A stretch of DNA of 64,000 nucleotides from an uncultured Eubacteriales bacterium (lineage in GTDB: Bacteria; Bacillota; Sulfobacillia; Fermentithermobacillales; Fermentithermobacillaceae): NCBI GenBank assembly GCA_964641455.1, contig CAZXLH010000003.1, positions 8,592-72,591 on the forward strand, read 5' to 3'. The notes below the pieces were generated by a model, which made no database searches, was not told the origin of the DNA, and saw nothing but the letters and a program-made list of their open reading frames with translations. This document shows, one piece after another, positions 14,387 to 35,089 of this stretch. Position numbers and translations under genes: made by a program. The first letter of the stretch is position 1; each line of letters starts with the position of its first letter.

Positions 14387-14437
14387 GTGCTAAATCTACA
14401 CCTTGCACATTACTCACGACGGTAACTTCCAAAAGTC

Positions 14438-18861: not shown

Positions 18862-19168
18862 CACCAAAGCCTCCTGTTCCGTATTGGGTTTCAATTACCA
18901 TACCGCTTGTAACAGGAGTAACACATGTTTTTACATTCGGAACGCCGTTTACAGTCATAATACAATCGCTACACTGCCCAATTCCGCAAAATACTCCGCG
19001 CGGTTGGTGCCTTTTCGGAGTGTATCTGTGAATTCTGATTCCTGCGGCCATCAAGGCTGCAGCAATTGTTTCTCCGTCCCGGGCCAAAATTCTTCTTCCG
19101 TCAACAGTAATTTCCACTGGTTTAGCAGGTGGGAGCTTTCCAAGAACAGGGTGTGAAACCACTCTCAC
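18842..19168 (-). CDS. [2Fe-2S] (Fer2_4) subunit, module 1
   Basis: GETIAAAL...FCGIGQCSDC...C. Start taken at the GTG at 19168. Confidence 0.88.
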   Translation of the reverse strand: MRVVSHPVLGKLPPAKPVEITVDGRRILARDGETIAAALMAAGIRIHRYTPKRHQPRGVFCGIGQCSDCIMTVNGVPNVKTCVTPVTSGMVIETQYGTGGFGDESATS

Positions 19169-19223
19169 GTTTCTGCCTCCTTGCAAGGTAAAACCCTATG
19201 CAAATGCAAAAGCCGAACCGATA

Positions 19224-20228
19224 TCAAAGCAAAAATCCATTTTTTAAAGGATCCCTTGAATCAACCACAAAGTTGTGTATTCCGGTAACAAAAGCGCTTC
19301 CGGTTATCTCACATACAATGCCTGATACCCCTCCGACACAGGCTTCACCTACGATAGCGGCTGATAACCTGGTACCGATAATGCTTTCATTTATAAACAC
19401 TTCACCTACACCAATTTCGCCTCTTGCATACATAGATGCCAATACTGCACAAGTCCCCGTACCACACGGGGATCTGTCTATTGCATCGTGGGTAATCAAA
19501 ACCGCGTTTTTGCCATGGGTTTCAGGTGAAGACGGGCCTGCCTTAAAACATACATGAGTAACCCCTTCAATAAATGGCTTTTCAGGATGTACTACTTTGA
19601 ATTCTGCATTGATGGCTTGTCTTATCATTTTGCCTGCTCTGATTATGTCCAAAGATGATTCAGGGCTGACTTTCAAGCCAAGATCTTCAGCATCAACGAT
19701 AGCAAAGAAATTCCCGCCGTAAGCAATGTCGAACCTTATATTGCCGAGCCCCGATACGTATACATTCTTGTCGCCGGCATATAAAAAAGACGGTGCGTTA
19801 GTCAAAGTTACCGACTGAGTAACACCGTCTTTTACCAGGGCTCTTACATCAACCAGGCCTGCAGGAGTCTCGAGAGTAACAAGTGTAACAGGTTCGGAAA
19901 CACCAATTACCTTTGATTCAATAAGGGCAGTGCAAAAGCCAATTGTATCGTGGCCACACATAGGGAGGTAGCCACCTGCCTCAAGATAGATAACTCCCAC
20001 ATCTGCATCTGGATGGCACGGCTCTGTAAGTATAGCGCCTGACATCACACTATGCCCTCTTGGCTCTTGCATAAGCATAGTGCGAATGTGATCCATGTTC
20101 TCACGAAAATACAGCATCTTTTCAGATACTGTATTTCCCTGTATTGGGCCTATTCCTCCAATGATCGTCCTGGTAGGTTCGCCACAAGTATGCGTATCTA
20201 TACACATTACCGTTCTTTCGAATCTCAT
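19224..20228 (-). CDS. Proline racemase family enzyme, most likely 4-hydroxyproline 2-epimerase
   Basis: Both catalytic Cys are present (MCGH, DRSPCGTG). The HSVMSGA segment has Ser where clostridial proline racemase PrdF has Phe, resembling Bacillus-type Hyp epimerases. Confidence 0.85.
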   Translation of the reverse strand: MRFERTVMCIDTHTCGEPTRTIIGGIGPIQGNTVSEKMLYFRENMDHIRTMLMQEPRGHSVMSGAILTEPCHPDADVGVIYLEAGGYLPMCGHDTIGFCTALIESKVIGVSEPVTLVTLETPAGLVDVRALVKDGVTQSVTLTNAPSFLYAGDKNVYVSGLGNIRFDIAYGGNFFAIVDAEDLGLKVSPESSLDIIRAGKMIRQAINAEFKVVHPEKPFIEGVTHVCFKAGPSSPETHGKNAVLITHDAIDRSPCGTGTCAVLASMYARGEIGVGEVFINESIIGTRLSAAIVGEACVGGVSGIVCEITGSAFVTGIHNFVVDSRDPLKNGFLL

Positions 20229-20255
20229 TGAGCGACCTCCTGCGAATCCGGAACA

Positions 20256-20975
20256 CTAGTTGCTACTGCCGCTTTTTGCCTTCCCTAAAGCATCTCTTAC
20301 AATATCTAAATGCTCATGCATCTTGTTACCTGCAGACACTGCGTCTCCGTCATGCAAAGCTTGCAAGATAACTTCGAATTGCTCAACGGTTCGCTCGAAA
20401 GTATAAGGCAACGTCCTTAAGAATCTCTCAGCGTCTTTGTTGACTCTCCGAATCAAGACACTTACCAGCTCTGTCAATACTGCATTTTGACAGGCTCCGG
20501 CCAGAGTCAAATGAAAATCCAGCTCTTTTTCGAAAAACAGATCCATATCATCATCCATAACATCTTTCATTGATTCCAAAAGTTGCTCAAGTTTTGCAAT
20601 AACCTCATCAGTTGCCCTTTCAGCGGCAAGCCCGGCAGTGGTTACCTCAATCAGCCTTCTGGCCTCCATCAATTCAAAAGCAGGCGCCTGCTTCAGGGCC
20701 AACCTCCAATTCTGAGAGTTAATCAACGCCATGGCATCTTGGGACAAAAACCGGCCAACACCGGGCCTGGATTCAACAAGGCCCATATACTCCAGAGAAT
20801 GCAACGCTTCTCTTACTGACGAACGGCCCACTCCAAACCCTTCGCAAAGTTCCTTTTCCGTAGGCAGTTTCTCCCCCGGTTTGAGTACCCCGTTTTCAAT
20901 CATGTCGCGAATTCTGTCTGTAATCATCTCAGTGATTTTACTTGGCTTCCGTAAACGTCCTATATTACCTAGCAA
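20256..20975 (-). CDS. GntR/FadR-family transcriptional regulator
   Basis: LPTEKELCEGFGVGRSSVREAL winged HTH plus FCD domain. Confidence 0.93.
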   Translation of the reverse strand: MLGNIGRLRKPSKITEMITDRIRDMIENGVLKPGEKLPTEKELCEGFGVGRSSVREALHSLEYMGLVESRPGVGRFLSQDAMALINSQNWRLALKQAPAFELMEARRLIEVTTAGLAAERATDEVIAKLEQLLESMKDVMDDDMDLFFEKELDFHLTLAGACQNAVLTELVSVLIRRVNKDAERFLRTLPYTFERTVEQFEVILQALHDGDAVSAGNKMHEHLDIVRDALGKAKSGSSN

Positions 20976-21113
20976 ATTGCATCTCCCCCTCGTAAAGAAC
21001 CCTAATAAATCTTCCAGGGATTATCAGGCTGTCATACATCCTGATAATCATTCTATACCTATTAGGATTCCCCTGCAGAAAATCAACCTTTCGGGGAAGA
21101 TGAACCAGAGCCT

Positions 21114-22760
21114 CTATCTCACCGGGCCGGCAAATTGTGTTTGAAACCGAACCTTGTCCTCATCTGACAGTTCAAGAAACCTCTCAAAGTTGGCAAGGCT
21201 CAATCTGCCTACAGAGAAAAGAATCTCGGTAAACTCTTTGTCTCCATACTTAAACTTTGCCTGTAAATCTCCAATCTTCTTCATTCCATAATAATAGCAA
21301 GTCATATATCCAGGATTAAGTTCCTGGTAAAGCACCTGGCCCCTTGCAGATGTCCTATCAAACCCCAGTTCTTGCATATAAAGCTTAACTGCGTCATCCA
21401 CCGGTTTGCCAAAGTAATGAAGCCACAAATCAGCCTTAATCCTGACAGCGGTATGGTGCCGCCTTAGACGGACAAATAAAGGGAAAAACCGGTCAGGGAA
21501 AATATGTTCCATGAGTTTCTCTGATCGGTGAGCCGTGCCTTCCATTAAGGGAATATACCGCGAACCGATTTTCACCGTCTCAGGCAAAGGATCCATGGTG
21601 GTTCTGACAAACTGCACGTGATGCCCTGGATAACATTCGTGTATAGCCATCATCTTGAGCCAACCGTCTGTAACAGCCTTGTAATTGGTCTCATTCAGAA
21701 ATACCTCTCCAACAAGAGGCCTGCGTCTGAAACACCCTCCCCCGTACCCGCCCCATGGGTACGAATCTCTTGTTTGCTCAGGGGTAGGGCTTACAACACA
21801 GTGCTCTTCAGGCAATTTCACATAACCGTCTAACGTAGCTTTCTTTGCCGTTTCTACATAGCCTTTCATTCTGGAGAACATCTCTTCTACAGTGTCGCAA
21901 GGGCCGGCATGCTCATCTAATATTGCAAATACATCCGCCAATGATTTGACGGGCCTTACACCTAAATCCCTTGCTGTGTCCAACAGCTGCTCGCGTGTGG
22001 ATGCCATTTCCCTTTCGTGCCAATCCAACAGTTCTTCCAAACTCACACCAAGTTCGTTTTCGAGAATTCGCCTGTACCTTTCAGGGTTTACAGGCTTAGT
22101 TACGGAATCGGAGCCATGTTCAGCAGGGGTTTTGCTTTCGGCTGCATAAAGAGCTTCTTTCTCCCATGCTGCAGCCCTGGATACAATCTCATCAAGTTTG
22201 ACAGCAAGATCAGCTTGGGCCCTTGAATCAAGCTCATGATAGTACTTAGGAATATTGGTTTTTACGTTACAAGCTATAACCCGTAAAATTTTACATGCCC
22301 TTGCTACCTCTTGTATTTTGTCACTTTGAGAATCCGGGAATAACGCCTTAACCCCCTCCCACAGAGCGTCTGTCTGTGAAAGCCGGGCAGAAAGTACAGC
22401 CAAACGTTCTTGAGCAGGCCTGGAATCCTGGCGGGAATTGAAATCCAAAACCCATGTTTGCCCGCTCATAAAACGAGCCAAATGCTGAAAATTGGTCTCT
22501 ACGGCTGAAATCCGCCCTGTCAGGAATTCTATGAAATGAGATCTTAGAAGAGAAAATACAGGGTCAGGTTCAGGAAGTTTCTTGGCTTCTTCAAGCAGCG
22601 ATTCAAAAGCAGCCTTCATCTCCTCTTTCAAAGCAATGGAAGGTATTAAAGTGTGGGTTTCGTAATCACGGCTTGATGAATACTTATATACAGCCTGAGC
22701 GCACTTGGCGTCAAATTCGCAATAGATTTGCCTGACTGTATCGTTGTTTGGCTTAGTCAT
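21114..22760 (-). CDS. DUF885-family protein, paralog 2
   Basis: AIHECYPGHHVQ, EGTAHRSE and GYMTCYYYG motifs; visibly homologous to 14438..16096. Start taken at the ATG at 22760. Confidence 0.75.
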   Translation of the reverse strand: MTKPNNDTVRQIYCEFDAKCAQAVYKYSSSRDYETHTLIPSIALKEEMKAAFESLLEEAKKLPEPDPVFSLLRSHFIEFLTGRISAVETNFQHLARFMSGQTWVLDFNSRQDSRPAQERLAVLSARLSQTDALWEGVKALFPDSQSDKIQEVARACKILRVIACNVKTNIPKYYHELDSRAQADLAVKLDEIVSRAAAWEKEALYAAESKTPAEHGSDSVTKPVNPERYRRILENELGVSLEELLDWHEREMASTREQLLDTARDLGVRPVKSLADVFAILDEHAGPCDTVEEMFSRMKGYVETAKKATLDGYVKLPEEHCVVSPTPEQTRDSYPWGGYGGGCFRRRPLVGEVFLNETNYKAVTDGWLKMMAIHECYPGHHVQFVRTTMDPLPETVKIGSRYIPLMEGTAHRSEKLMEHIFPDRFFPLFVRLRRHHTAVRIKADLWLHYFGKPVDDAVKLYMQELGFDRTSARGQVLYQELNPGYMTCYYYGMKKIGDLQAKFKYGDKEFTEILFSVGRLSLANFERFLELSDEDKVRFQTQFAGPVR

Positions 22761-22908
22761 GAGGCCACCTCCAAAAAATGTATAGGTAAAATTACAACCG
22801 ATAATGTGGTGACCAGAGACGCAGGTTGTTGTGCCTGCGTCTCTATAGCAAATAATTTGGCCGAAGCAAAATCGCCGGTGGCTCACTTACTTCCGGCCGG
22901 GCCATACT

Positions 22909-24057
22909 CTAAACAACTGCCGGTTCTACCCGCAAGTCTCCTCTTTCAAAACGGGCAAGGTCTAAATCACTTATATCAATAGAAACCTCTTTGCCTAATA
23001 TCATCTCAGAAAGTAGTTGTCCGACTATAGGCGCTAACATAAACCCGTGGCCGCTGAACCCGACCGCCTGGTAATACCCGTCGATGCCCGGAACAGTCCC
23101 AAGTATGGGATGGGCATCAGGTGTAATAGTGTATAAGCCGGACCATTGCCTGATAACCCTAACGCCTTCAAGTGCCGGAACAAGTTTACACATGATGTCA
23201 GACATTCTTGCAAGGAACTGCCATGAATGGCCTATGTCATATCCTCTTGGCTCGTTTGGATCTCCAATTCCCATGACCAGGGATCCGTGAGGTGTCTGCT
23301 GACAGTAAATCCCAAGGGAAAAAGACATGAGCATAGGGTCAAACACATGGCCCACAGGTTCAGTAACCAAGATTTGGTGGCGCTCGGTATACAGAGGGAG
23401 TTTTACACCAACCATGGAAGCAACAGGAGCCGCCCAAGGCCCTGCAGCGTTTACCACAATTGAAGTAGATATGTCGCCTTTATTGGTCTTCACTTTGGTT
23501 ATTTTGCCATTTGATTTCTCAATCCCTGTAACCTCTGTAAAGCAGTTGACTTCGCCGCCGAGGCGCTCAAAAGCTTTTAAGTAAGCTCTTGTTGTGTGAA
23601 ACGGGTTGGCGTGGCCATCCCGGGCATTAAAGGTTGCCCCTAACATTCCTTCTGTATTGAGCGCAGGTACGATTTGTTTGGCATCTTCCGGAGTACATAC
23701 TTGTGCATTTACGCCCAACTTGTGTTGCACTTCAACGTTTTCCTTAAATTGCTCCCATTCTTTCTCACTATATGCCATCATCAGGTAACCTTTTTGTACA
23801 AACTCAATATCATAATCATATTGAAGTTCTTCCTGGAGACCCTCAAAAATGTCAATTGCAGCTTTGCATATTCTGATATTTCCTTCAGAGCCCCACTGCT
23901 CTCTAACCCCTGCACCGCATCGCCCGGTGGAACCGCTTGCGAAAGTATCCTTTTCACACAATACGACGTTCTTCATACCATGCTTCATAAGATTGTAGGC
24001 TATTGAAGCGCCGTTCACTCCTCCACCCACTACTACTGCGTCTGCTGAAGTTTTCAT
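22909..24057 (-). CDS. FAD-dependent dehydrogenase catalytic subunit (L-proline dehydrogenase beta / sarcosine oxidase beta-like), module 2
   Basis: GGGVNG, GSTGRCGAGVR, WSGLYTITPD and GFSGHGFMLAP motifs. Confidence 0.88.
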   Translation of the reverse strand: MKTSADAVVVGGGVNGASIAYNLMKHGMKNVVLCEKDTFASGSTGRCGAGVREQWGSEGNIRICKAAIDIFEGLQEELQYDYDIEFVQKGYLMMAYSEKEWEQFKENVEVQHKLGVNAQVCTPEDAKQIVPALNTEGMLGATFNARDGHANPFHTTRAYLKAFERLGGEVNCFTEVTGIEKSNGKITKVKTNKGDISTSIVVNAAGPWAAPVASMVGVKLPLYTERHQILVTEPVGHVFDPMLMSFSLGIYCQQTPHGSLVMGIGDPNEPRGYDIGHSWQFLARMSDIMCKLVPALEGVRVIRQWSGLYTITPDAHPILGTVPGIDGYYQAVGFSGHGFMLAPIVGQLLSEMILGKEVSIDISDLDLARFERGDLRVEPAVV

Positions 24058-24383
24058 TGGCCGGCCACCTCCTCTTGACACTTACAATCAGCACCATCTT
24101 CATCATCTTCTGAAATGATGGCCAACTCACCCATTTTTATAGGTTTAACAGGGGGCCTGTAACGAGACTGAAGGATTTCAGAAACCGGTTTTCCGAGATA
24201 CCTGGCAATCTCCCCTGCCACCAGCAACCTACAAGTTCTTCCTTGGCATGGCCCCATACCGGCTCTGGTTATGCGTTTGACTTCGTCTAAGGTGGTTGCG
24301 CCTTCTCTAATGGCTTTTCGTACCTCTCCCAATGTCACGTCTTCGCACCGGCAAACAATAATGTCGTTTTCAGCCTTAGCCAT
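24054..24383 (-). CDS. BFD-like [2Fe-2S] subunit, module 2
   Basis: CRCEDV...RAGMGPCQGRTC. Confidence 0.9.
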   Translation of the reverse strand: MAKAENDIIVCRCEDVTLGEVRKAIREGATTLDEVKRITRAGMGPCQGRTCRLLVAGEIARYLGKPVSEILQSRYRPPVKPIKMGELAIISEDDEDGADCKCQEEVAGQ

Positions 24384-24386
24384 GGC

Positions 24387-24896
24387 TCACCCCACCCTTT
24401 CAACAAGTTCAAAGTTTCTTACCGTCATAGACAATTGCTTTGGGGCTCGTACCCAAACAACAGGCGTTCCTTGAGGCTTCTTGCCGGGAAGCACTCTGTG
24501 AACCAACCCTTCCCCTACTTTTTCACCTGCCCTATCCAATAAAGACACTTTATCTCCTTTATCGGGCATGGGAGCGAACTCAAAGGGAATTGCTACCAAG
24601 CATTCAGTATCGCTAAAAGTTTCATCGACAACAAAAATCGCCAACCCCGGGCAAGCAGCTACACACACCCCGCAACCGGTACATTTGCTCCAATCTACCT
24701 CGGGAATATCATTTATTGATTCAAACTGCCGAATAGCACCAAACTTGCAACTATAATGGCATGGGTCGCACGGAATCTCCTGAAAGCATTCAACTACAAC
24801 AAAAGGCCCTTTTTCTCTCCGGGATTTCGGCGGCGTTCTGCTTTCAATTTGCTCTTTTGACGGAACACCGGTGGTCAAAAGAATATCGCTTTTCAC
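24387..24896 (-). CDS. 2x[4Fe-4S] ferredoxin-like subunit, module 2
   Basis: CFQEIPCDPCHYSC and CTGCGVCVAACP motifs. Confidence 0.9.
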   Translation of the reverse strand: MKSDILLTTGVPSKEQIESRTPPKSRREKGPFVVVECFQEIPCDPCHYSCKFGAIRQFESINDIPEVDWSKCTGCGVCVAACPGLAIFVVDETFSDTECLVAIPFEFAPMPDKGDKVSLLDRAGEKVGEGLVHRVLPGKKPQGTPVVWVRAPKQLSMTVRNFELVERVG

Positions 24897-26008
24897 ACGC
24901 TCACCCTCTTTCCCAATTGCTCTCTCAAAACAGCCAACCCTTCCACAATTGGTTTACTGGTCGGGCCCGCTCTCAATTGCTCCAATTCCTCTAAAGACGC
25001 TTTGTGTTTTTGTGAAAATTCGTTTGCAGAAACCTTGCCAAGGCTGTTGGCAACTGCCAACCCTGCAAGCCGCCCTTCTGCCATGGCAGTAGAAGCTTCT
25101 TCTATGCTGGCAACGTCCCCGGCCACATAGATGCCCTCTACCGTTGTTTCCATGTTCTCGTCGTAAAGAGGAACAAAACCGCCAAGGGCTGATACATAAG
25201 TCATTTCAGCTCCTGCCTGCCACAAGAACTCACACAAAGGCGTAAGGCCTGTAGCCAAGCATACAACATCTACTTTCAGGTCTTTTTCAGTGCCCGGGAT
25301 TCCCTGCCACTTGTCATCAAGCTGCCAGATAATCGCACCTTCCACAGAGTGCTTCCCATACGCTTCTTTAATGCTGTGCCTTGTAAGTATGGGAATGCCA
25401 AGCCGCCGGATTTTCGAGGCATGTACCGCATAACCGCCTATTGCCGGCAGAGCTTCAACGAGCGCTGTCACCTTCACACCGGCTTGCACAAGCTGGTAAC
25501 TTACAATCAGGCCGATATTTCCGGACCCTATCATCAATACAGAGTCGCCTGGCTTAACCCCATGAACATTCATGAGGGTCTGCACAGCGCCTGCCCCATA
25601 AACCCCCGGCAAATCGTTGCCCGGGAAAAGAAGCATTTTTTCAGATGCTCCTGTAGCTATCAAGAGTTTGGTGGCTTTGAGTTTCTCAATTCCGTGGGGA
25701 GTCTCAAGAAGCAGTACACCATCATCCTTGTAATACCCTAAAACTTCGGTAGATTTCATAAAGCAAATGTTTTGATTTTGCCCTATATCGTCAGCGAGAT
25801 TATTTGAAATTACAATTCCACGAGTCCCTGCGCTTTTTTCGTGCCACCCAAAGAACTTATGGGTCTGTTTTACCAGCTGCCCACCGATCCCATCGTCCCT
25901 ATCAATAAGGGTGACCTTAACTCCGTAAGAGGCAGCTTCAAGAGCAGCACAGACACCTGCAGGACCCGCTCCTACAATTGCAAGCTCTGTAGTCTTCAAC
26001 AAAGTCAC
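24893..26008 (-). CDS. NAD(P)/FAD-dependent oxidoreductase subunit, module 2
   Basis: GAGPAG, FPGNDLPGVYGAG and GIYVAGD motifs; paralog of 17683..18861. Confidence 0.88.
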   Translation of the reverse strand: MTLLKTTELAIVGAGPAGVCAALEAASYGVKVTLIDRDDGIGGQLVKQTHKFFGWHEKSAGTRGIVISNNLADDIGQNQNICFMKSTEVLGYYKDDGVLLLETPHGIEKLKATKLLIATGASEKMLLFPGNDLPGVYGAGAVQTLMNVHGVKPGDSVLMIGSGNIGLIVSYQLVQAGVKVTALVEALPAIGGYAVHASKIRRLGIPILTRHSIKEAYGKHSVEGAIIWQLDDKWQGIPGTEKDLKVDVVCLATGLTPLCEFLWQAGAEMTYVSALGGFVPLYDENMETTVEGIYVAGDVASIEEASTAMAEGRLAGLAVANSLGKVSANEFSQKHKASLEELEQLRAGPTSKPIVEGLAVLREQLGKRVSV

Positions 26009-26337
26009 TCCTTACTTACCAGGTCAGGCCCAACACCTTTTTGCATCTCAACGTGCATGCCTGCCCTTAGTTTTTCGGTGCACGCCCTAACATTAGGAAC
26101 CCCGTCAACAACCACCAAACACGAAGAACAATTGCCTATTGCACAAAAAAAGCCGCGCGCACGGCCCTCTTTCATGCTCTCATGAAGCACCTTGATGCCT
26201 GAAGCATGAAGAGCGCTTGCTATCGGCTCGCCTTCGTACCCCCAAAGTTCCTTTCCTTCCCAATAGAACTTAACTTTCTTCCTCTCGGTGAAGTCCAGTA
26301 TTGGGTGTTCTCTGATTCTGATTTCCGAAGATTCCAA
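26005..26337 (-). CDS. [2Fe-2S] (Fer2_4) subunit, module 2
   Basis: GEPIASAL...FFCAIGNCSSC...C. Confidence 0.88.
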   Translation of the reverse strand: MESSEIRIREHPILDFTERKKVKFYWEGKELWGYEGEPIASALHASGIKVLHESMKEGRARGFFCAIGNCSSCLVVVDGVPNVRACTEKLRAGMHVEMQKGVGPDLVSKE

Positions 26338-26551
26338 AGATTAATGCCCCCCTCCTGTGAACAATTATTGCTTGTAAGGATATTGCCAAGCCCGGGAAGC
26401 GCCCTGTCAATACAATTGCATCCCGAATCGAACGCCTCCCGGGCCGAAAGCCTATTAATCTGCATTTACGAATCCATGATTCAAGTTCTGCCAAACTTTG
26501 CTTACTCAGGCCACTGTATTGATTAAGTTTTCTCACAAACGCCTGCACAGG

Positions 26552-28411
26552 CTATCCGAGATCATAACCTGCTTCTTCAAGAGTCTTGGCTGCATATTCC
26601 AGCCCGAGTTCCTCCAATTTCTTCTTGGTTGGAATACCGTCTGAAGTCCACCCTCGCTTGGCGTAGTAATCATCGAGCATAATGTCTATTTTTTGCCTGG
26701 GTATGAATTTGCCTTTGGCAGGCCCTGATGGGACAGGTTCTTCCATAAACCTGGCAGGAGGATAATCCCATGGCCTTCCAAAACCTTTGTTTTCCCTCGC
26801 GGTCAAAGCCCGGGTCAGATTCCACACTCTTTCGGCAACCAAAATAAGATCTTGCCATCCGTAAGGAAGCCCTGTAATCAACGGAAAGATTTCGCCATAG
26901 TGCTGTTCTTCAAATCCGATTTCCACCCACTGCAGCCTGCAAGTGCCTAACAAGTCAAATACAGGCCTTATGTGCTGAAGTTCAATGGTTTTGTCGGCTT
27001 TACCTTCGGTTGTGTCACGGCCTTCAGCCACATCAAAGGTAACTGCCCACGAACGATTGTGGTGGGCGCCTATATCGCATGTAATGTAAGAAAGCATCAT
27101 CGCCGGAGCCCATCTTGCTTCGTATCCTGTCCATTCAAGCCCCTTTACTTGAATCGCAAACCTGTCAGAATCTCCGCCAATCTCGTCAGCCGCAGCCCGA
27201 ACTCCCTTTGCCAAAAGATCGCCTATACCTTCACGATGCGCCATCTTCTCAAGAAGATAAACTACTGATTCAAGGTCGCCCCAGGCCAGTTTTCGCCCTA
27301 CCTGTTCTTCGGTAAGAAGCCCTTTTTCAAAGCACTCTATGGCAAAGGCAGCCAGGTTTCCGCCTGAAATCGTGTCTAATCCAAGTTCATCGGCAACCCA
27401 GTTGGCGTAAGCAACTTCTTCGATTGTGTCTATGGCCACATTGCCTCCGAGCATTGCAATTGTTTCGTACTCAGGGCCCTCCACCAAAATTTCCCCTAAT
27501 TTGGTGCATGCCTTCGAGTATTTTCCACAAGGCGTTGGACAAGCAAAACATCCCTTGTCAGTCTGCAAAATTCGATCTTTAAGTGCCTGGCCATTGATCC
27601 CTTTGTGGCCCTCGAAATAGTTTGTAGAGAAGTTCTTTGTGGGAAAAACTCCGGCAGTGTTAGCCCAGTCAACCACTTCAGCAGTGCCATACGGGGTCCA
27701 TGTCTTGAATCCTGGCTTATGAAAACACACCTTATACATTTCCCTCGATTTTTCAAAAGCCTTCTTGGTGTCTGTAATCGGAATGGTATGTGAGCCGCGC
27801 ACCGCCACAGCCTTCACTTTCTTCCATCCCAGTACGGCGCCAATGCCTGTTCTCCCTGCCTGCCTGCCGTAATCATGCGATACACATGCAAATTTTACAA
27901 GGTTTTCGCCTGCAGGGCCGATCAGGGCAATCTGGAAGTCTTCACCCAACTTGTCTTTGAGCATTTTTTCTGCCGTGATACACCCAACGCCCCACACGTC
28001 TGACGCATCTTCAAAAGTGACTTTGTCATCATCTATCACTACTATTGTTGGCTTATCTGATTTACCTCTTATAATAAGGGCGTCATATCCTGCAAACTTA
28101 ATTTCAGGGGCAAAATGCCCGCCCATGTTTGAGTCACCGTAACCGTTTGTGGCAGGAGACTTACAGCCCATATGCACCTTGCCTGAAGCAGGCAAATGTA
28201 CACCGCCTAACGGGCCGGGCGCCATTACTACAACGTTTTCTGCTGAAAACGGCTCGGCACCTGCGGGAACCATGTCCCAAAGAAGTTTGGCAACAAACCC
28301 ACGTCCGCCAATATATTCTTTTATCAGTTTCTCATCAGTCGGAATTTGCCTTGATGTTTTTGAAGATAAATCAATCTCCAAAAGTTTACCCATATAGCCA
28401 CCATATGTCAT
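26552..28411 (-). CDS. aor: Aldehyde:ferredoxin oxidoreductase (tungsten AOR family)
   Basis: KSPATNG..DSNMGG, AGRTGIGAVLG.KKVKA, EGPEYET, C..CP..C and GLDTISGG motifs. Confidence 0.93.
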   Translation of the reverse strand: MTYGGYMGKLLEIDLSSKTSRQIPTDEKLIKEYIGGRGFVAKLLWDMVPAGAEPFSAENVVVMAPGPLGGVHLPASGKVHMGCKSPATNGYGDSNMGGHFAPEIKFAGYDALIIRGKSDKPTIVVIDDDKVTFEDASDVWGVGCITAEKMLKDKLGEDFQIALIGPAGENLVKFACVSHDYGRQAGRTGIGAVLGWKKVKAVAVRGSHTIPITDTKKAFEKSREMYKVCFHKPGFKTWTPYGTAEVVDWANTAGVFPTKNFSTNYFEGHKGINGQALKDRILQTDKGCFACPTPCGKYSKACTKLGEILVEGPEYETIAMLGGNVAIDTIEEVAYANWVADELGLDTISGGNLAAFAIECFEKGLLTEEQVGRKLAWGDLESVVYLLEKMAHREGIGDLLAKGVRAAADEIGGDSDRFAIQVKGLEWTGYEARWAPAMMLSYITCDIGAHHNRSWAVTFDVAEGRDTTEGKADKTIELQHIRPVFDLLGTCRLQWVEIGFEEQHYGEIFPLITGLPYGWQDLILVAERVWNLTRALTARENKGFGRPWDYPPARFMEEPVPSGPAKGKFIPRQKIDIMLDDYYAKRGWTSDGIPTKKKLEELGLEYAAKTLEEAGYDLG

Positions 28412-28812
28412 ACCCTGTGCACCTCCCCTGATTCATCTGCCAGGGCTTCTCTTGGGCAATACTTCACGCATTCGCCGCAGCTGATACATTTGAATGCAAC
28501 ATTCTTTTCTTTGATAAAGCGTATGACCTGCTCAGGGCACGCATCTACGCAAACCTCGCATCCTATACATTCCGCTTCATCAACAAAGAGAACCCCCTCT
28601 GAGTTTTCTTTGATTGCGCCTGTAGGACAAACATCTTTGCATACTCCGCATTCAGTACACACTTGCAGTTCATAAGTACCCGGGCTGGGGAAATGCTGAA
28701 TAACATTGATGGTTCCATACCTGGGGTTATTCAGGCCGTGATTTGCAAGTGAGCAAACCAGGAGACACGCTTTGCAGCCTGAACACAATTTGGACACTGT
28801 TTTTAGTTTCAC
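28408..28812 (-). CDS. Multi-[4Fe-4S] ferredoxin partner of AOR
   Basis: Four CxxCxxC-type motifs; GGAGG RBS in front of the GTG at 28812; overlaps the aor start. Confidence 0.9.
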   Translation of the reverse strand: MKLKTVSKLCSGCKACLLVCSLANHGLNNPRYGTINVIQHFPSPGTYELQVCTECGVCKDVCPTGAIKENSEGVLFVDEAECIGCEVCVDACPEQVIRFIKEKNVAFKCISCGECVKYCPREALADESGEVHRV

Positions 28813-29187
28813 GAGACCCTCCTCCAAACCTTAAGAAATTTGTGACCCTCTATACTTGGCTACTCACGGCATGAATGCGCTCATGCCCGAACCAAACATA
28901 ACCACGGGCTCGAAAACGGTGCTTCGAGCCACCTAGCCTAATAACAGTTACATTAATGGAAATGCCTGAAAAGTATGCCTTATCACAATTCGTCATATTT
29001 TCGCGGAAGTCCTGCTTGGGTCCTATTTCAATCTATGTCAGTTTGGATTAAATCTTAGATGTCAGAGTGTTGGTTAACTTTGTTTTACAACTTATCTCAA
29101 AACTCTCGGGCACATATTGCGATATTGTGTCCCACTATTTTAATAACAGATCTTTTAGCAGTTTGACATCAGCTCATCAGACAAAAA

Positions 29188-29210
29188 TGATTGTGACAAT
29201 GTCACAATCA
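29188..29210. terminator. Perfect 23-bp palindrome, probable bidirectional terminator after hypD
   Basis: TGATTGTGAC-AAT-GTCACAATCA, followed by T-runs on both strands, 32 bp after the hypD stop. Confidence 0.55.
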
Positions 29211-29241
29211 TTTTCATTCTTAACTTCTTTTGCTTGTGTTT

Positions 29242-31602
29242 CTAAAAAGTTGTATGCTCAGTTCTGGCTATTATCTCATCTTGAAGAGCTTTGGTCAGAT
29301 CGCAGAAATAATCACTGTACCCTGCAACTCTTACTATTAGATCTCTGTACTCCTCAGGGTTTGCCTGGGCATCGCGCAAAGTATCAGCGCTTACCACATT
29401 AAACTGGATATGGTGGGCTCCCATACGGAAATATGCCCTCACCAGATGAGCCAAATTATCTATACCTTCTTGCCCCTCAAGAAGTTGGGGGCTAAATTTC
29501 TGGTTTAACAGGGTGCCGCCTGTTCTTACATGGTCCATCTTGGAACAAGACCTAAGAACGGCTGTAGGCCCGTTCCTGTCTGCACCTTGCACAGGTGAAA
29601 TACCCTCTGACAAAGGCTGCCCTGCAAACCTGCCATCAGGAGTTGCCCCTATTACTGAGCCGAAATATACATGGCATGTAGTAGGTAACATGTTAATTCT
29701 ATAAGTTGCCCCGGTTGGGCTCTTTCGTCCGTTAACTTCATTATGGAAAATATCAAAAACCTGCTGCATAATTTGATCGGCATAATCATTATCATTGCCA
29801 TATTTGGGAGTGCGGTTTAACAAGAGCCGGCGCAATGGTTCTAAGCCTTCAAAATTGCACCTAAGTGCTTCCAGCAACCTGTCCATAGAAACCGTTGCTT
29901 GGTCATATACATGATACTTAACAGCTGACAAACTATCAGTAATGCTTCCTATGCCTACTCCCTGGATATAACGGGTATTGTACCGTGCTCCTCCGGCGTT
30001 GTAGTCTTTTCCGTTCTCAATGCAATCACTTACTGTCACTGAAAGAAAGGGGCTTGGCATATACCTGGCATAGAGTTTCTCTATAACATGATTGCCTCTG
30101 ATTTTAATCTCTGTAAAATACTTCACCTGCTTTTTAAAAGCCTCTATCAGCCGATCAAAACTCTTGAAACTGTTTGCATCTCCGGTTTCAAGCCCCAGTT
30201 TCTTGCCTGTCCTGGGATCAACCCCATTGTTCAGCGTTATTTCGAGTATCTTGGTTAGGTTGAAGTACCCTGTAAGAATATACGCTTCCTTGCCGAATGC
30301 TCCCGTCTCAACACACCCGCTTGTACCGCCTGAGCGAGCATCTTCTATGGTTTTTCCTTGCATAAGCATTTCCTGTATTACGGTATCAGCGTTAAATATA
30401 GAAGGCTGGCCCCAACCTTCCCTTACAATCTCCAATGCCCGCTTCAAAAACTTATCGGGACTCTTCTGGCTAAGCTGTATATTTGAGCTTGGCTGCAAAA
30501 GCCGCATTTCATCTATAACATCAAGAATCAGATAGGTTACATCATTTACCCCATCCTGGCCATCCTTTGTAAGGCCGCCGTTATTTATATTGGCAAAATC
30601 CGTATAGGTTCCGCTTTCTTGCAAAGTGATACCTACCTTAGGCGGCGCAGGTTGGTTATTAAACTTGACCCAGAAACACTGAAGCAGTTCTCGTGCGTCT
30701 TCCCGGGATAAAGTGCTTGCTTCAATTTCTTTTTTGTAAAAAGGATAAAGGTGCTGATCTAATCTTCCGGGGTTAAAAGAATCCCAAGTGTTAAGCTCTG
30801 TTATTACGCCTATGTGAACAAACCAATACATTTGGAGAGCCTCATGAAACGTCTGTGGAGCATGAGCAGGAACATGTTTGCATACCTGCGCTATCTTCAA
30901 AAGTTCTTGCCTGCGCTTCTCATCTTTTGCTTTTTTCGAAAGTTCAAGGGCTTTTTCTGCATGGCGCTCACCGTATCGAATTATGGCGTCACAACAAATC
31001 TTCATAGCCCTTAGTTGGTCATGTTTTTCGTAGGCTTCAGGATCATTGAGAAAATCCAGGTTGCTTATGGCCTCTTCTATATCTTTCTTAAAATCCAAGA
31101 AACCCTTTTGATATATCTTGCCGTCTGCTACCGTGTGGCCAGGGGCCCGCTGCTCCATGAACTCAGTAAATATTCCCGCCTCATAACAATCTTTCCATTC
31201 ATCAGTCATTTCCCGGAATATTTTATGGCGAATGGATCGTTTTTTCCAAAATGGAATTATTTCAGTTTGCTGAACTTTTCTGGCCTCAGCGCCCACTTTG
31301 AAAAAGGTTTTTTCCCGGTCATTAATAACATCGAAATCTTCCATGGTGTGACAACAAAGTTCAGGGTAAGTCGGGGTAGCCTTGGGAGCCGGGCCTCGTT
31401 CTCCGACTATCAGTTCATCTTCACCAATGTATATCTCCTTTTGCTCCATCAACGCCTTAAACGTAAGAGCCCGCAATACAGGCACAGGCACTTTACCCTC
31501 GTACTTCTTGTAAGCCTGTGTAACCAGTTGCGCTCTTTCTATAGAAAGAGCCGGCTGTGCCTCAAGGCTTCTGGTCCTAAGCCTTAATACTCTCTCCCTC
31601 AT
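29242..31602 (-). CDS. hypD: trans-4-hydroxy-L-proline dehydratase (glycyl radical enzyme)
   Basis: Long segments match my recollection of C. difficile HypD: TEFMEQRAPGHT, FNNQPAPPKVGITL.ES.TYTDFANIN, GGTSGCVETG (catalytic Cys), MLPTTCH and RVAGYS (glycyl radical loop). Confidence 0.93.
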   Translation of the reverse strand: MRERVLRLRTRSLEAQPALSIERAQLVTQAYKKYEGKVPVPVLRALTFKALMEQKEIYIGEDELIVGERGPAPKATPTYPELCCHTMEDFDVINDREKTFFKVGAEARKVQQTEIIPFWKKRSIRHKIFREMTDEWKDCYEAGIFTEFMEQRAPGHTVADGKIYQKGFLDFKKDIEEAISNLDFLNDPEAYEKHDQLRAMKICCDAIIRYGERHAEKALELSKKAKDEKRRQELLKIAQVCKHVPAHAPQTFHEALQMYWFVHIGVITELNTWDSFNPGRLDQHLYPFYKKEIEASTLSREDARELLQCFWVKFNNQPAPPKVGITLQESGTYTDFANINNGGLTKDGQDGVNDVTYLILDVIDEMRLLQPSSNIQLSQKSPDKFLKRALEIVREGWGQPSIFNADTVIQEMLMQGKTIEDARSGGTSGCVETGAFGKEAYILTGYFNLTKILEITLNNGVDPRTGKKLGLETGDANSFKSFDRLIEAFKKQVKYFTEIKIRGNHVIEKLYARYMPSPFLSVTVSDCIENGKDYNAGGARYNTRYIQGVGIGSITDSLSAVKYHVYDQATVSMDRLLEALRCNFEGLEPLRRLLLNRTPKYGNDNDYADQIMQQVFDIFHNEVNGRKSPTGATYRINMLPTTCHVYFGSVIGATPDGRFAGQPLSEGISPVQGADRNGPTAVLRSCSKMDHVRTGGTLLNQKFSPQLLEGQEGIDNLAHLVRAYFRMGAHHIQFNVVSADTLRDAQANPEEYRDLIVRVAGYSDYFCDLTKALQDEIIARTEHTTF

Positions 31603-31605
31603 GAC

Positions 31606-32688
31606 TCATCCTCCTATTTTCACAGTAAGCCCGAATTCTTCAAGTTGCTTTTTTACCTTTGACATATCCTCAGTATCAGGCTGAGAAACATCTTTCAGGC
31701 AATAGGCCTTGCCCAGCCTTGTGTACTTATCTGAACCTATATTGTGATACGGCAAAATATTGATTTGCCTGATGTTAAGTTTCGAAAGAAACTTCCCTGT
31801 ATCCCTAATGTTTTGCTCACCATCGTTCATTCCCGGAATTATGGGCATCCGGGCTATTATTAATTGATGAATTTGAGACAACCTGGACAGGTTATCCAAT
31901 ACCAGTTCATTAGAAACGCCTGTGTATTTTGCATGCTTGCCCGGGTCCATGATTTTTACATCATAAAGAAATATGTCTGCCAAAGACGCCACCTGCTCAA
32001 CTACTTTAAACGGGGCATATCCGGAAGTATCGACAGCTGTGTTTATGCCTTCATCCTTGCACCGTAAAAGAAGATCACATAGAAATTGAGGCTGCATAAG
32101 AGGTTCTCCGCCTGAAAAAGTAACGCCGCCTCCTGACTGTTCATAAAATATTCGATCTTTGAGTATCTCGTTTATGACCCAGTCAGAAGTGACCTTCTTA
32201 CCGGCCATTTCTCTTGCCGCTGCCGGGCAAATTTCTGCACACTTCCCGCACACTGTACATTTTTGCCTGTCTGTCACAATTGGGCTTACAGCGCCGGGTC
32301 TATCTTCTGCACCACGCGTATCCTTCGTGTCTGTTGCATGGACTGCGTCCCCTGATTTTGTTTCGCCTACTGTATCTATAGTGATTACTCTGGCTGCATT
32401 AGCCGCTTTATCTGCTGTTTCGTCTGCTATTTGTGTATCAGATTGTTTGTTATCTGTAGATAATGTGAAAACCGGTTCCAAAGCCCTGTTAGGACATACC
32501 GGTATACACATACCGCAACCCAAACATCTCGAGTCAAAAATTACCAATTCCTGTTCTAAACACTGGCCTTCAGGGTTATGGCACCACTTACACCTTAGCG
32601 GGCACCCCTTAAAAAACACAGTAGTCCTTATACCAGGGCCATCATGCACAGAGAATTTCTGGATATTGAATATGGTTCCCTTGTTCAT
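31606..32688 (-). CDS. Glycyl-radical activating enzyme for HypD (radical SAM with ferredoxin-like insert)
   Basis: HDGPGIRTTVFFKGCPLRCKWCHNPE, two [4Fe-4S] insert motifs, GGVTFSGGEPL; abuts hypD. Start taken at the ATG at 32688. Confidence 0.93.
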   Translation of the reverse strand: MNKGTIFNIQKFSVHDGPGIRTTVFFKGCPLRCKWCHNPEGQCLEQELVIFDSRCLGCGMCIPVCPNRALEPVFTLSTDNKQSDTQIADETADKAANAARVITIDTVGETKSGDAVHATDTKDTRGAEDRPGAVSPIVTDRQKCTVCGKCAEICPAAAREMAGKKVTSDWVINEILKDRIFYEQSGGGVTFSGGEPLMQPQFLCDLLLRCKDEGINTAVDTSGYAPFKVVEQVASLADIFLYDVKIMDPGKHAKYTGVSNELVLDNLSRLSQIHQLIIARMPIIPGMNDGEQNIRDTGKFLSKLNIRQINILPYHNIGSDKYTRLGKAYCLKDVSQPDTEDMSKVKKQLEEFGLTVKIGG

Positions 32689-32805
32689 CACACCGCCCCA
32701 CAGCCTAATTTGTTTGTCTGGTAGCATGTTGTCTGACATTTATCATTATATTACATTCTACAAAGTTATTAATTTTCCCTCTCTATCAAACACTAAACTC
32801 CTCAG

Positions 32806-32834
32806 ATTATACAATTAGGCCAATATCAAGACAA
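32806..32834 (-). promoter_or_regulatory. sigmaA promoter of the activase-hypD operon
   Basis: Minus strand TTGTCT-N17-TATAAT with an extended TG. Confidence 0.7.
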
Positions 32835-32841
32835 ACAACGT

Positions 32842-32987: not shown

Positions 32988-33605
32988 CTACTTCACTATT
33001 TCTAACCAGTCAACGATAAGGAATTGCATCCTTGCAAGAAACAAAGATACACGGGCCATAACAGTTGTTCCAAACGCAGCGCCAAAAGCTATCATCATAG
33101 TGTACCTGCCTATCCAGGAACCATATTTAAGCGGGCCTTTTGGTTCGATCGTAAACAAAAAGAACGATAACGTACATATCACGCCTACCAGAAGAAGCGA
33201 AGCATTTATGGCCTCGGCACCGGTTGGGTTTGAAAGAGGCTTTATGGTAGCAATTACCTGGTCGATCAGCATGGGCTTCCACGTCTTGGTCAATACAACC
33301 CCTGCGCCTACACCGACAGTAAACGATATAGGGTATCTTGATAACCACTGAAGGCGCTTGCTAAACCTTGTATACATCAAAAGCCCCAAAATAATCGGAA
33401 CTATATAGTTCCACTTGCCCTTTTCAAGAATGTCTATCATTACCGCAGGCTTTATTCTGTTGCCGAACGTCATTGCAACAGCATACCCGGCTGTGGTACC
33501 CACAAAGATAGTTTCGGCAAAATAGTAAACTTCGCTCTCTTTGAAGATAATGCTGTAAAGAGCAAGGGTTAAAAACGCAGCAATCCAGTTTCCGATGTTA
33601 GCCAT
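32988..33605 (-). CDS. Uncharacterised polytopic membrane protein (DUF6754 cassette gene 4)
   Basis: About 6 hydrophobic segments, a G...GY motif and a C-terminal FGAAFG..VMAR motif; overlaps gene 3. Confidence 0.8.
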   Translation of the reverse strand: MANIGNWIAAFLTLALYSIIFKESEVYYFAETIFVGTTAGYAVAMTFGNRIKPAVMIDILEKGKWNYIVPIILGLLMYTRFSKRLQWLSRYPISFTVGVGAGVVLTKTWKPMLIDQVIATIKPLSNPTGAEAINASLLLVGVICTLSFFLFTIEPKGPLKYGSWIGRYTMMIAFGAAFGTTVMARVSLFLARMQFLIVDWLEIVK

Positions 33606-34440
33606 TACCTCTTGCCTCCTTTCTTTTGGAGAGGAAGTACTGAACGTTGCCGACTATCACAAAAAGTACAATTAGCAAGTGAGTTAGGCTCTGAGCATCC
33701 ATACCTACAGTGGCAGTACCGGGTGTATTGATCAATTGTTCATATTCGGCGGCCCCTTTCATGCCTGCGAGCATGCCGGTAAGCTGGCCTGATTGAAACA
33801 AAGGCATGCTTTCAGGGATACTCACAGCAAAACACGCCCCGGTAACCGGAACTCCCAATGGAACCCCAATCATCTTTACGTAAACTGAAAGCCCCTCGCC
33901 GAGTGACCCAATTGAGGCAGCCAAAGCTACATCCTTCAGAGATTTCACTTCTTGCATAAGCGGCATGGCTTCTAGCCGTTTTCCATAAAAGTCAACTCCG
34001 TTTGCCGCATTGATGATATCAACACCCATGGCTTCAAAAAACACGTTGCCCGAACCCTTGTAACCCAAATTAACCCAATCTTCACCGTATTTCTTATCAG
34101 GGAAGTCAGGCAATACAACATCCATAGCCCTTTCAAGCAAACTCCCTGACTCTGCTGTAATCCCTGCAGAAAGCACCTTGATATCCCTGGAAAAACAATG
34201 TCTGATTAAGGCAATCGCTGCAGGTTCCATTTCAGCCAAGGAAGATGCATAATAGTCAAAACCGATATAGACCGTTTTTCCGGATGGAATTGTATCGACG
34301 AAATCATATAGCACTTGGGTTTCCTTGCTAATTGGAATGGGCAGCCCGATAGGAGAAATAATGGCATATGCTACACACATAATAATCAAAATATATAGAA
34401 CATAATCCATCCGCCTGTCATTGGTTCCAGCCGTGTTCAT
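33598..34440 (-). CDS. Uncharacterised membrane protein with a soluble alpha/beta domain (cassette gene 3)
   Basis: N-terminal TM helix, soluble domain (DWVNLGY), LAGMKGAAEYE, and a C-terminal MDAQS..HL TM helix. Confidence 0.8.
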   Translation of the reverse strand: MNTAGTNDRRMDYVLYILIIMCVAYAIISPIGLPIPISKETQVLYDFVDTIPSGKTVYIGFDYYASSLAEMEPAAIALIRHCFSRDIKVLSAGITAESGSLLERAMDVVLPDFPDKKYGEDWVNLGYKGSGNVFFEAMGVDIINAANGVDFYGKRLEAMPLMQEVKSLKDVALAASIGSLGEGLSVYVKMIGVPLGVPVTGACFAVSIPESMPLFQSGQLTGMLAGMKGAAEYEQLINTPGTATVGMDAQSLTHLLIVLFVIVGNVQYFLSKRKEARGNG

Positions 34441-34459
34441 AACCTTTACCTCCCTTTGC

Positions 34460-35072: not shown

Positions 35073-35089
35073 GAGTACTCCTCCTTTCG

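Follow-up and report, generated by a model that had tools for sequence, protein, structure and literature searches.

A predicted tungsten aldehyde:ferredoxin oxidoreductase at the position of pyrroline-5-carboxylate dehydrogenase in a proline and hydroxyproline locus of an uncultured Fermentithermobacillaceae bacterium

Oxidation of proline by a proline dehydrogenase (ProDH) and a NAD-dependent pyrroline-5-carboxylate dehydrogenase (P5CDH), as in PutA or PruA/RocA, proceeds from proline through pyrroline-5-carboxylate (P5C)/glutamate-5-semialdehyde to glutamate. The same chemistry is proposed herein for a locus in a 64,000-nt stretch of DNA from an uncultured Eubacteriales bacterium of the family Fermentithermobacillaceae (the whole stretch is referred to as the window). 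This locus encodes the hydroxyproline (Hyp) dehydratase HypD, an aldehyde:ferredoxin oxidoreductase (AOR) with a polyferredoxin, and a five-gene flavo/Fe-S dehydrogenase, and it probably allows peptides of the collagen type to be converted anaerobically into glutamate by a ferredoxin-linked route. In comparison with the ProDH and P5CDH pair, the second enzyme is an AOR with a polyferredoxin, a predicted tungstopterin enzyme outside the aldehyde dehydrogenase (ALDH) superfamily, and should therefore pass its electrons to ferredoxin or an Fe-S chain instead of NAD+. The first enzyme differs from PutA as well, being an archaeal-type multi-subunit flavo/Fe-S complex with no PutA-type TIM-barrel PRODH.

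The HypD-ProC Stickland route of Clostridioides difficile employs the same HypD and activase; the window contains neither proC nor prd genes, and its HypD is flanked by enzymes that would make and oxidize P5C. In a preliminary description of this DNA, HypD-derived P5C was suggested to be oxidized, a fate that had been considered before: few hypD genes have a neighbouring proC, and oxidation of P5C to glutamate by a nearby dehydrogenase has been suggested for some species (Huang et al., 2018). No paper in the searched literature links HypD, proline dehydrogenase or P5C with an AOR, and a literature search on P5CDH in Pyrococcus yielded nothing useful. What appears to be new is a heteromeric tungsten AOR in the place of P5CDH, repeatedly coupled to a predicted archaeal-type proline dehydrogenase in Bacillota.

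Further resemblances are found in archaeal and aerobic bacterial systems. The proline and Hyp cluster of Thermococcus litoralis and T. profundus includes alpha-beta-gamma-delta and alpha4-beta4 L-ProDHs, ProR-like enzymes and a pyrroline-2-carboxylate (Pyr2C) reductase. The window shares with it two dehydrogenase modules, a Cys-Cys ProR/HypE-like gene, an ornithine cyclodeaminase (OCD)/mu-crystallin gene and the subunit order alpha-gamma-delta-beta. It differs in its bacterial host, in an alpha subunit split into two open reading frames (ORFs), in the addition of HypD and AOR, and in a second module that lacks the gamma subunit and whose DAO-family protein is distant from the L-ProDH beta subunit. 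With the aerobic LhpA-G pathway for Hyp, the window has in common an epimerase-type gene and a multi-subunit DAO/Fe-S dehydrogenase (module 2), an analogy under which an aldehyde-oxidizing enzyme could in principle take 2-oxoglutarate semialdehyde. In contrast to that pathway, the window has no Pfam/NCBIfam match to a dihydrodipicolinate synthase (DHDPS)-family deaminase of pyrroline-4-hydroxy-2-carboxylate (Pyr4H2C) or to 2-oxoglutarate semialdehyde dehydrogenase, no ALDH is present in it, and the linkage of the AOR is with module 1 instead of module 2. The window also resembles two heteromeric bacterial tungsten AORs, AorABC of Aromatoleum aromaticum and WorABCSL of Acetomicrobium mobile, in that the gene just before that of the catalytic subunit specifies a polyferredoxin with four [4Fe-4S] clusters. 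Those enzymes are broad-range detoxifiers, whereas the AOR described here is embedded in what its neighbouring genes suggest to be a dedicated amino-acid pathway; moreover, neither an AorC-type FAD subunit nor a BfuABC bifurcating module was found in Pfam/NCBIfam scans of the window.

All genes on which the proposal depends lie on the minus strand, in the order activase, hypD, polyferredoxin, AOR and five-gene module, so that the arrangement and coordinates given in the preliminary description (activase, hypD, ferredoxin-aor and a five-gene dehydrogenase on one strand) hold. They are listed below in the direction of transcription.

31606..32739, minus strand: HypD-activating radical SAM enzyme (NF043069 is the best NCBIfam model; TIGR02494)
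29242..31602, minus strand: HypD, predicted trans-4-hydroxy-L-proline dehydratase, a glycyl radical enzyme (NF043068, 6VXC, catalytic residues)
28408..28827, minus strand: WorS/AorA-type polyferredoxin (four CxxCxxCxxxC motifs; full-length PDB matches)
26552..28411, minus strand: AOR catalytic subunit (WorL), predicted tungstopterin aldehyde:ferredoxin oxidoreductase (AFOR_N and AFOR_C; PF02730, PF01314)
26005..26337, minus strand: 2Fe-2S Fer2_4 protein, N-terminal part of ProDH alpha (PF13510, E = 1e-28; soxA N-terminal region)
24893..26008, minus strand: FAD/NAD(P)-binding Pyr_redox_2 protein, main part of ProDH alpha (PF07992)
24387..24896, minus strand: 4Fe-4S protein at the position of the gamma subunit, pdhF (Fer4 family matches)
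24054..24383, minus strand: BFD-like 2Fe-2S/SO_alpha_A3 protein at the position of the delta subunit, pdhX (PF17806, PF04324)
22909..24081, minus strand: DAO-family flavoprotein, catalytic beta subunit, predicted to convert proline to P5C (1Y56_B match)
Intergenic spacers of the minus-strand locus: 414 nt between hypD and worS, 214 nt between AOR and the module

HypD passes the equivalog model NF043068 with 1451 bits against a cut-off of 1100, and aligns without gaps to C. difficile HypD (6VXC, 1191 bits). In this alignment the glycyl radical loop, the Cys-x-Glu loop and the HypD-specific residues are all present, with 12 of 12 residues conserved (Gly761, Cys430, Glu432, His156, Asp274, Asp335, Ser330, Phe336, Tyr446, Thr641, Arg152 and Lys322). 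The catalytic and substrate-binding roles of such residues, including His160, Asp278, Asp339, Ser334, Phe340, Tyr450 and Thr645, have been described (PMC7077986). The window HypD is taken to be genuine and is predicted to convert Hyp into P5C and water. The activase gene stops 3 nt short of hypD, and its likely true start is an internal ATG at 32688, which gives the usual N-terminus and coincides with the end coordinate of the preliminary description. The activase scores 367.7 bits with TIGR02494 (cut-off 174) and 408.5 bits with the T4HPD activase model NF043069, slightly short of the cut-off of 425; the deficit is explained by an insertion of ~60 residues (at about residues 90-150), acidic and of low complexity, between two accessory Fe-S motifs. 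The activase of one related locus, L165, is longer still, at 465 aa.

The five genes of the flavo/Fe-S module are tightly packed (26337-22909) and follow the alpha-gamma-delta-beta order of the archaeal enzyme, with alpha split into two ORFs; in T. profundus this order corresponds to pdhA-F-X-B (as cited in PMC4364671). The Fer2_4 gene always heads the module in related loci. The beta subunit, whose true start is probably ~8 codons downstream because its homologues are 382 aa long, scores 311 bits with the L-ProDH beta subunit PH1364 of Pyrococcus horikoshii (1Y56_B) and 158 bits with sarcosine oxidase beta. The Pyr_redox_2 protein was considered as an AorC-type subunit of the AOR and rejected as such: its best PDB match is PH1363 (1Y56_A, the ProDH alpha subunit), followed by SoxA, with AorC absent at E <= 1e-10. 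Altogether, the module is best described as the predicted bacterial counterpart of the archaeal alpha-beta-gamma-delta L-proline dehydrogenase, an assignment also made because orthologous modules adjoin P5CDH in three related loci (L113, L124 and L150).

The small protein encoded upstream of the AOR gives full-length PDB matches to WorS (9MQX_E), the Fe-S subunit of WOR5 (6X6U_B) and AorA (8C0Z_C). Its likely start is a GTG at 28812, which yields 134 aa, and the 3' end of its gene runs 4 nt into the AOR gene. Furthermore, it was recovered by tblastn in nearly every AOR-centred locus of at least 45% identity that spans the upstream position of the AOR. Given the four motifs and the full-length WorS/AorA matches, the protein previously called a ferredoxin is instead a WorS/AorA-type AOR subunit, predicted to serve as the enzyme's own electron-transfer subunit with four [4Fe-4S] clusters and not as a free carrier.

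The closest solved structure to the AOR catalytic subunit is the formaldehyde ferredoxin oxidoreductase (FOR) of Pyrococcus furiosus (1B25, 460 bits). Aligned with the catalytic and [4Fe-4S] residues of FOR (1B25, 1B4N), among them Glu308, Tyr416, His437 and the cluster cysteines, the window AOR conserves Glu316, Tyr430, His451 and Cys288/291/295/491. In addition, its Arg482 and Arg492 are common to FOR (Arg481 and Arg492) and to 48-49 of 54 aligned sequences, and are absent from P. furiosus AOR. According to a review of these enzymes, FOR has its lowest Km for glutaric dialdehyde and was crystallized with glutarate, a C5 dicarboxylate; its affinity for formaldehyde is poor, and guesses at the physiological substrate have included glutaric or other C4-C6 semialdehydes. 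The preference for a C5 dialdehyde and the bound glutarate define a shape close to glutamate-5-semialdehyde, and the window enzyme is proposed to act as a glutamate-5-semialdehyde (P5C):ferredoxin oxidoreductase. According to the same review, FOR consists of four copies of one subunit and has no Fe-S partner, whereas the window AOR has a WorS-type partner whose gene overlaps the AOR start, and thus falls outside the FOR-type architecture. No tungstate transporter was identified in the window, nor is there a MoaD/ThiS-like gene after the AOR. Such a gene, the counterpart of Aromatoleum aorD/aorE, encodes a protein ending in Gly-Gly and lies 3' of the AOR in four related loci (L081, 11898-12152; L083, 11917-12153; L168, 11859-12092; L169, 11931-12173); in L170 an 85-aa ORF (9845-10102) occupies the same position.

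The absence of the conventional enzymes was examined with family scans (Pfam or NCBIfam) of all ORFs of at least 150 aa that are not buried in a longer opposite-strand gene, minus a 177-aa ORF at 37864-38397. No ProC, ALDH-superfamily protein or proline reductase was found by these scans in the 64-kb window, and a six-frame tblastn search of the window with two ProC, two P5CDH and one generic ALDH sequence from related loci gave a best E of 0.3. The window has no unannotated gap big enough for a prd operon. The earlier statement that proC, a PutA/RocA-type P5CDH and proline reductase are missing is therefore borne out for the 64 kb. No scanned ORF of the window has the Aldedh fold or matches a P5CDH model, and the AOR is proposed to be P5CDH-like in function alone.

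Comparison with related loci provides the evidence that carries the proposal. One set consisted of 80 metagenome loci centred on HypD (65-73% identity). Here, proC lies directly 3' of hypD in five of the 80 loci, and an M24 peptidase gene is present in 13. L113, L124 and L150 have one arrangement in common: the five-gene module, with a beta subunit 51% identical, comes first and is followed by the gene for a 543-aa ALDH and then by those for the activase and HypD. The ALDH of L124 passes TIGR01236, the model for L-glutamate gamma-semialdehyde dehydrogenase, with 783 bits against a cut-off of 613.6, and those of L113 and L150 are its cluster mates. A second type of P5CDH (NF002852, 814 bits, cut-off 648) directly follows hypD in L084. 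Relatives of the window thus carry what is, by these models, an oxidative locus leading from HypD and ProDH to glutamate. In the window, the polyferredoxin-AOR pair fills the position between module and hypD that is held by P5CDH in L113, L124 and L150, which is the strongest single argument for an AOR that makes glutamate. The AOR therefore looks like a non-orthologous replacement of P5CDH: situated where relatives carry an NAD-dependent dehydrogenase, it would probably make glutamate and reduced ferredoxin instead.

A second set comprised 80 genome loci around relatives of the AOR, supplemented by further look-ups that included L167-L172. In 11 loci besides the window (L001, L005, L006, L028, L083 and L167-L172), the polyferredoxin-AOR pair and the five-gene module are direct neighbours, the AORs being 58-88% identical to that of the window. 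Two gene orders occur, the AOR being first in the window, L001 and L167, and the module first in the remaining linked loci. Several of these loci are compact, stand-alone operons of seven or eight genes, headed in L168-L170 by a GntR/FCD regulator gene. Genes for a prolidase (L167), an X-Pro dipeptidyl peptidase (L168), and both prolyl-tRNA synthetase and arginase (L171) lie nearby, and no ALDH or proC was found in any of the 11. The module-linked AORs cluster together in a neighbour-joining tree, which is a rough guide. The conserved partner of the AOR is the proline dehydrogenase, not HypD. The idea in the preliminary description that P5C/glutamate-5-semialdehyde from HypD and a dehydrogenase passes to the AOR is accordingly supported by comparative genomics, with the correction that the AOR is tied to the proline dehydrogenase. 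As a separate observation, the module-AOR operon of L171 contains two tandem DAO genes (5261-7572).

The wider AOR clade occurs in other settings. In Desulfobacula-type loci (L008, L017 and similar), the polyferredoxin-AOR pair lies among MttB methyltransferases, a single DAO, a DUF1638-hydantoinase fusion and a sigma-54 regulator. In L006, the module and AOR are followed by genes for a methyltransferase of the MttB family and for a betaine-type transporter of the BCCT family (8250-11328). The loci with MttB, DAO and AOR suggest an anaerobic pathway for quaternary amines or N-methyl amino acids, in which the AOR oxidizes the released aldehyde, perhaps formaldehyde. In the Symbiobacterium-type locus L054 (7063-11934) and in L049, the AOR gene runs at its stop into a gene for a class-III (omega) aminotransferase, which is followed by a sodium:solute symporter, with CoA-transferase and thiolase genes upstream; this looks like another route from amine to semialdehyde to acid via the same clade. 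Since the partners make aldehydes from amines, the clade looks like the aldehyde-oxidizing half of anaerobic amine catabolism.

In the proposed pathway, Hyp and proline would be freed from peptides by an M24 prolidase and an S15 X-Pro dipeptidyl peptidase encoded elsewhere in the window. HypD would dehydrate trans-4-Hyp to P5C, and the five-gene alpha(split)-gamma-delta-beta flavo/Fe-S complex would oxidize L-proline to the same compound, while an epimerase may feed D- or cis-isomers into the Hyp and proline routes. P5C would open spontaneously to, and equilibrate with, glutamate-5-semialdehyde, the predicted substrate of the WorL-type AOR with its WorS-type polyferredoxin; flux is predicted to run towards glutamate, with the polyferredoxin handing on the electrons of the tungstopterin enzyme to ferredoxin or a partner complex. 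In this way, the AOR would do the job of an NAD-dependent P5CDH (RocA/PruA, or the C-terminal domain of PutA) and save the low potential of the reaction as reduced ferredoxin. The aldehyde/acid couple is low enough in potential to reduce ferredoxin, and saving this potential would suit a purely fermentative bacterium. Confidence in the functional assignment is moderate, as everything rests on gene context.

The electrons of proline oxidation itself have a much higher potential and are hard to dispose of for a fermenter without a respiratory chain, and an electrical coupling of the two enzymes is therefore conceivable as a speculation. The polyferredoxin-AOR pair and the proline dehydrogenase might form one complex that performs flavin-based electron confurcation onto NAD+ at the flavin of the alpha subunit, although this arrangement is considered unlikely. 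WorS would dock on the dehydrogenase as it does on AorC or BfuABC in known enzymes, and low-potential aldehyde electrons would help to push the high-potential proline electrons to NAD+. If this were the case, a non-respiring bacterium could convert proline to glutamate with NAD+ as sole acceptor, and the persistence of the two gene sets side by side in either order would be explained. A corollary of this reading for the Thermococcales is that the physiological substrate of the archaeal FOR could be glutamate-5-semialdehyde formed by their own proline dehydrogenases.

The genes around the locus are listed below, all on the minus strand where coordinates are given.

32988..35866, minus strand: membrane-protein cluster upstream of the activase (DUF6754, PF20539; two small ORFs; ORFs of 280 and 205 aa)
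21114..22886, minus strand: DUF885 paralogue a (PF05960), directly after the beta subunit gene
20256..20975, minus strand: GntR/FCD transcription regulator, candidate regulator of the locus (PF00392, PF07729)
19224..20228, minus strand: proline racemase/4-hydroxyproline epimerase family enzyme of the Cys-Cys type (PF05544)
16241..19186, minus strand: second flavo/Fe-S module, module 2 (Fer2_4, 18842-19186; Pyr_redox_2, 17683-18894; BFD-like, 17418-17690; DAO, 16241-17434)
14438..16096, minus strand: DUF885 paralogue b (PF05960)
13256..14386, minus strand: M24 Xaa-Pro dipeptidase, prolidase (PF00557, PF01321, PepQ model)
Further off in the window: S15 X-Pro dipeptidyl peptidase, Opp-type peptide transporter, M19 dipeptidase, OCD/mu-crystallin protein, histidine-utilization genes

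Taken together, these genes portray an amino-acid fermenter that degrades peptides rich in proline, and the M24 prolidase is the predicted source of free proline and Hyp; M24 genes also accompany HypD or the module in L165, L166 and L167, in addition to the 13 HypD-centred loci. Relatives of the AOR assign the organism to the DTU015/Fermentithermobacillaceae group of Bacillota, which has been described as fermenting peptides and amino acids without respiration, and DNA of the window was detected in sequencing runs from anaerobic digesters, sludge and landfills. Homologues of the GntR/FCD regulator with 35-38% identity are those that head the module-AOR operons of L168, L169 and L170. The membrane-protein cluster consists of proteins with hydrophobic segments and DUF6754 as the sole family match; it precedes the module-AOR operon in L172 (1055-3938, 38-50% identity), is present in L001 as well, and may, speculatively, be an uptake system for proline or Hyp.

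Neither the ProR model (cut-off 556) nor the HypE model (cut-off 376) is passed by the racemase-family protein, which scores 393 and 352 bits, respectively, and carries Cys91 in the motif MCGH and Cys255 in DRSPCGTG. A 3-hydroxyproline dehydratase was considered for this gene and rejected, the protein being of the Cys-Cys type (classification of PMC4364671). Module 2, whose Fer2_4 ORF is easily overlooked, has a DAO protein that is distant from L-ProDH beta (85 bits) and matches no specific model; it is possibly a D-proline or D-hydroxyproline dehydrogenase, which is a guess. Module 2 recurs, with a DAO 50% identical, in the metagenome locus L121 together with HypD and a ProR-like gene. The DUF885 paralogues have no HExxH motif and no transmembrane segments; both directly follow a DAO-type dehydrogenase module, and none is found in L165. 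The OCD/mu-crystallin protein (54593-55537) scores under the cut-offs for ornithine cyclodeaminase and for Pyr2C/piperideine-2-carboxylate (Pip2C) reductase, and its gene adjoins those of the M19 dipeptidase and the Opp-type peptide transporter; the protein could link ornithine or D-proline metabolism to L-proline. At 36258-39987, a 602-aa ORF without a family match, conserved in L001 too, and a radical SAM/SPASM enzyme are syntenic with the hypD locus of L165.

The spacer between hypD and worS contains one further feature.

29184..29214, no strand assigned: perfect 27-nt palindrome, AATGATTGTGACATTGTCACAATCATT, in the 414-nt hypD-worS spacer

The palindrome occurs once in the window (chance expectation, 0.24 matches), is also conserved in L001, and could be an AT-rich terminator hairpin or an operator. 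A role as a shared operator was dropped, as a single occurrence in the window provides no evidence of a regulon. A scan for promoters and terminators returned counts at background level and no clear operon boundaries, and an Rfam scan of the whole window found just one tRNA and no riboswitch, the molybdenum/tungsten cofactor (Moco/Wco) motif included.

Several observations weigh against the proposed route. Of the hypD-aor-dehydrogenase neighbourhood highlighted in the preliminary description, the AOR-dehydrogenase pairing extends to the 11 further loci, whereas HypD adjoins the AOR in L001 alone, the nearest relative. Co-transcription of hypD with the AOR is doubtful, because the 414-nt spacer holds the perfect, hairpin-like palindrome. 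L165, from a sister lineage with a beta subunit 84% identical, has hypD, module and prolidase without the polyferredoxin-AOR pair. Its backbone is that of the window (radical SAM/SPASM, 600-aa ORF, activase, hypD, module, prolidase and rimP-nusA-infB), but L165 lacks, along with the AOR pair, both DUF885 paralogues, the GntR/FCD gene, the epimerase gene and module 2. The AOR pair therefore behaves as a cassette. A complete Fermentithermobacillus genome has both the module and the polyferredoxin-AOR pair, unlinked, and no adjacent AOR or P5CDH was found in four DAO-centred look-ups (Fermentithermobacillus, L165, L166 and Clostridium sp. 'deep sea'), so that the module-AOR linkage is frequent, not universal. 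The AOR is just marginally nearer to FOR than to P. furiosus AOR (39% against 37% identity; 395 bits for the latter). Furthermore, the wider clade appears to handle other aldehydes, possibly formaldehyde, since relatives sit with MttB and DAO or with a class-III aminotransferase. A gene for ProC or P5CDH may lie elsewhere in the genome. Finally, one metatranscriptome contained 8% of the AOR words, and its comparison with 13100-33000 produced a single chimeric contig of 196 nt, a trivial match.

The main alternative is that the AOR oxidizes another aldehyde derived from DAO-type dehydrogenases, either formaldehyde, from demethylation of sarcosine or N-methylproline, or 2-oxoglutarate semialdehyde from an epimerase and D-Hyp dehydrogenase; it is regarded as unlikely. 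Formaldehyde released from N-methyl amino acids is the leading candidate for a rival substrate. The very name of the closest solved relative points to it, as do the methyltransferase and betaine-type transporter genes of L006 and the position of the Desulfobacula-type pairs between MttB genes and a single DAO, next to the DUF1638-hydantoinase fusion. However, FOR itself binds formaldehyde poorly, and L006 is also compatible with a route from proline betaine through proline to glutamate. Formaldehyde is less likely for the window because MttB, corrinoid and BCCT genes are absent from the window scans, where the context is wholly one of proline, Hyp and peptides, because the beta subunit is far nearer to L-ProDH than to sarcosine oxidase, and because orthologues of the module pair with a verified P5CDH. 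For 2-oxoglutarate semialdehyde, the Cys-Cys epimerase and the resemblance of the second DAO module to three-subunit D-Hyp dehydrogenases can be cited; it is less likely again than formaldehyde, given that no Pyr4H2C deaminase was found in the window and that module 1, as opposed to module 2, is the conserved partner of the AOR.

It is also possible, though improbable, that HypD acts as in C. difficile, with a ProC from another part of the genome reducing P5C to proline, either to dispose of electrons or to supply proline, and the AOR uninvolved. ProC is encoded by a common housekeeping gene that could lie outside the 64 kb. The five related loci with proC directly after hypD, the rarity of HypD-AOR adjacency, and a hypD-worS spacer that may terminate the hypD transcript are all compatible with such a role. 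On the other hand, hypD is co-located with a ProDH that works in the opposite direction, from proline to P5C, in the window, L001, L165, L113, L124 and L150, and P5CDH is also present in three of these hypD-ProDH loci. The window has no prd genes; the lineage is described as fermentative, although Stickland reduction stays compatible with that description.

The AOR might instead scavenge a broad range of aldehydes or simply supply reduced ferredoxin, in which case shared electron wiring or co-regulation would account for the linkage to ProDH; this is held to be just as improbable. Detoxification is commonly proposed for bacterial AOR/WOR enzymes, and the clade occurs in varied contexts and alone in Fermentithermobacillus. 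A general scavenger accounts poorly, however, for a linkage kept in 11 loci and two gene orders, for the mutual exclusion of AOR and P5CDH in the loci seen, and for an adjacent enzyme whose product is itself an aldehyde. Reverse operation of the AOR, making the semialdehyde from glutamate with reduced ferredoxin for proline synthesis and bypassing ProB and ProA, is very improbable: AORs do reduce acids, but at very low rates (<0.3% of the forward rate), all neighbours are catabolic (peptidases, HypD, dehydrogenase), and P5CDH occupies the equivalent position elsewhere.

If the proposed oxidation of glutamate-5-semialdehyde is correct, a FOR-related tungsten AOR would gain a defined physiological substrate and pathway, which have been lacking since these enzymes were described. 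It would represent a ferredoxin-reducing alternative to P5CDH that changes the energy yield of proline and Hyp fermentation and makes this fermentation tungsten-dependent. The repeated coupling of the AOR clade to DAO-type amine dehydrogenases or omega-aminotransferases further suggests a general anaerobic route from amine to aldehyde to acid. In addition, the proposal would help to answer what becomes of P5C in most HypD-carrying anaerobes, a question left open in 2018 that bears on the breakdown of collagen and gelatin in digesters, sediments and guts.

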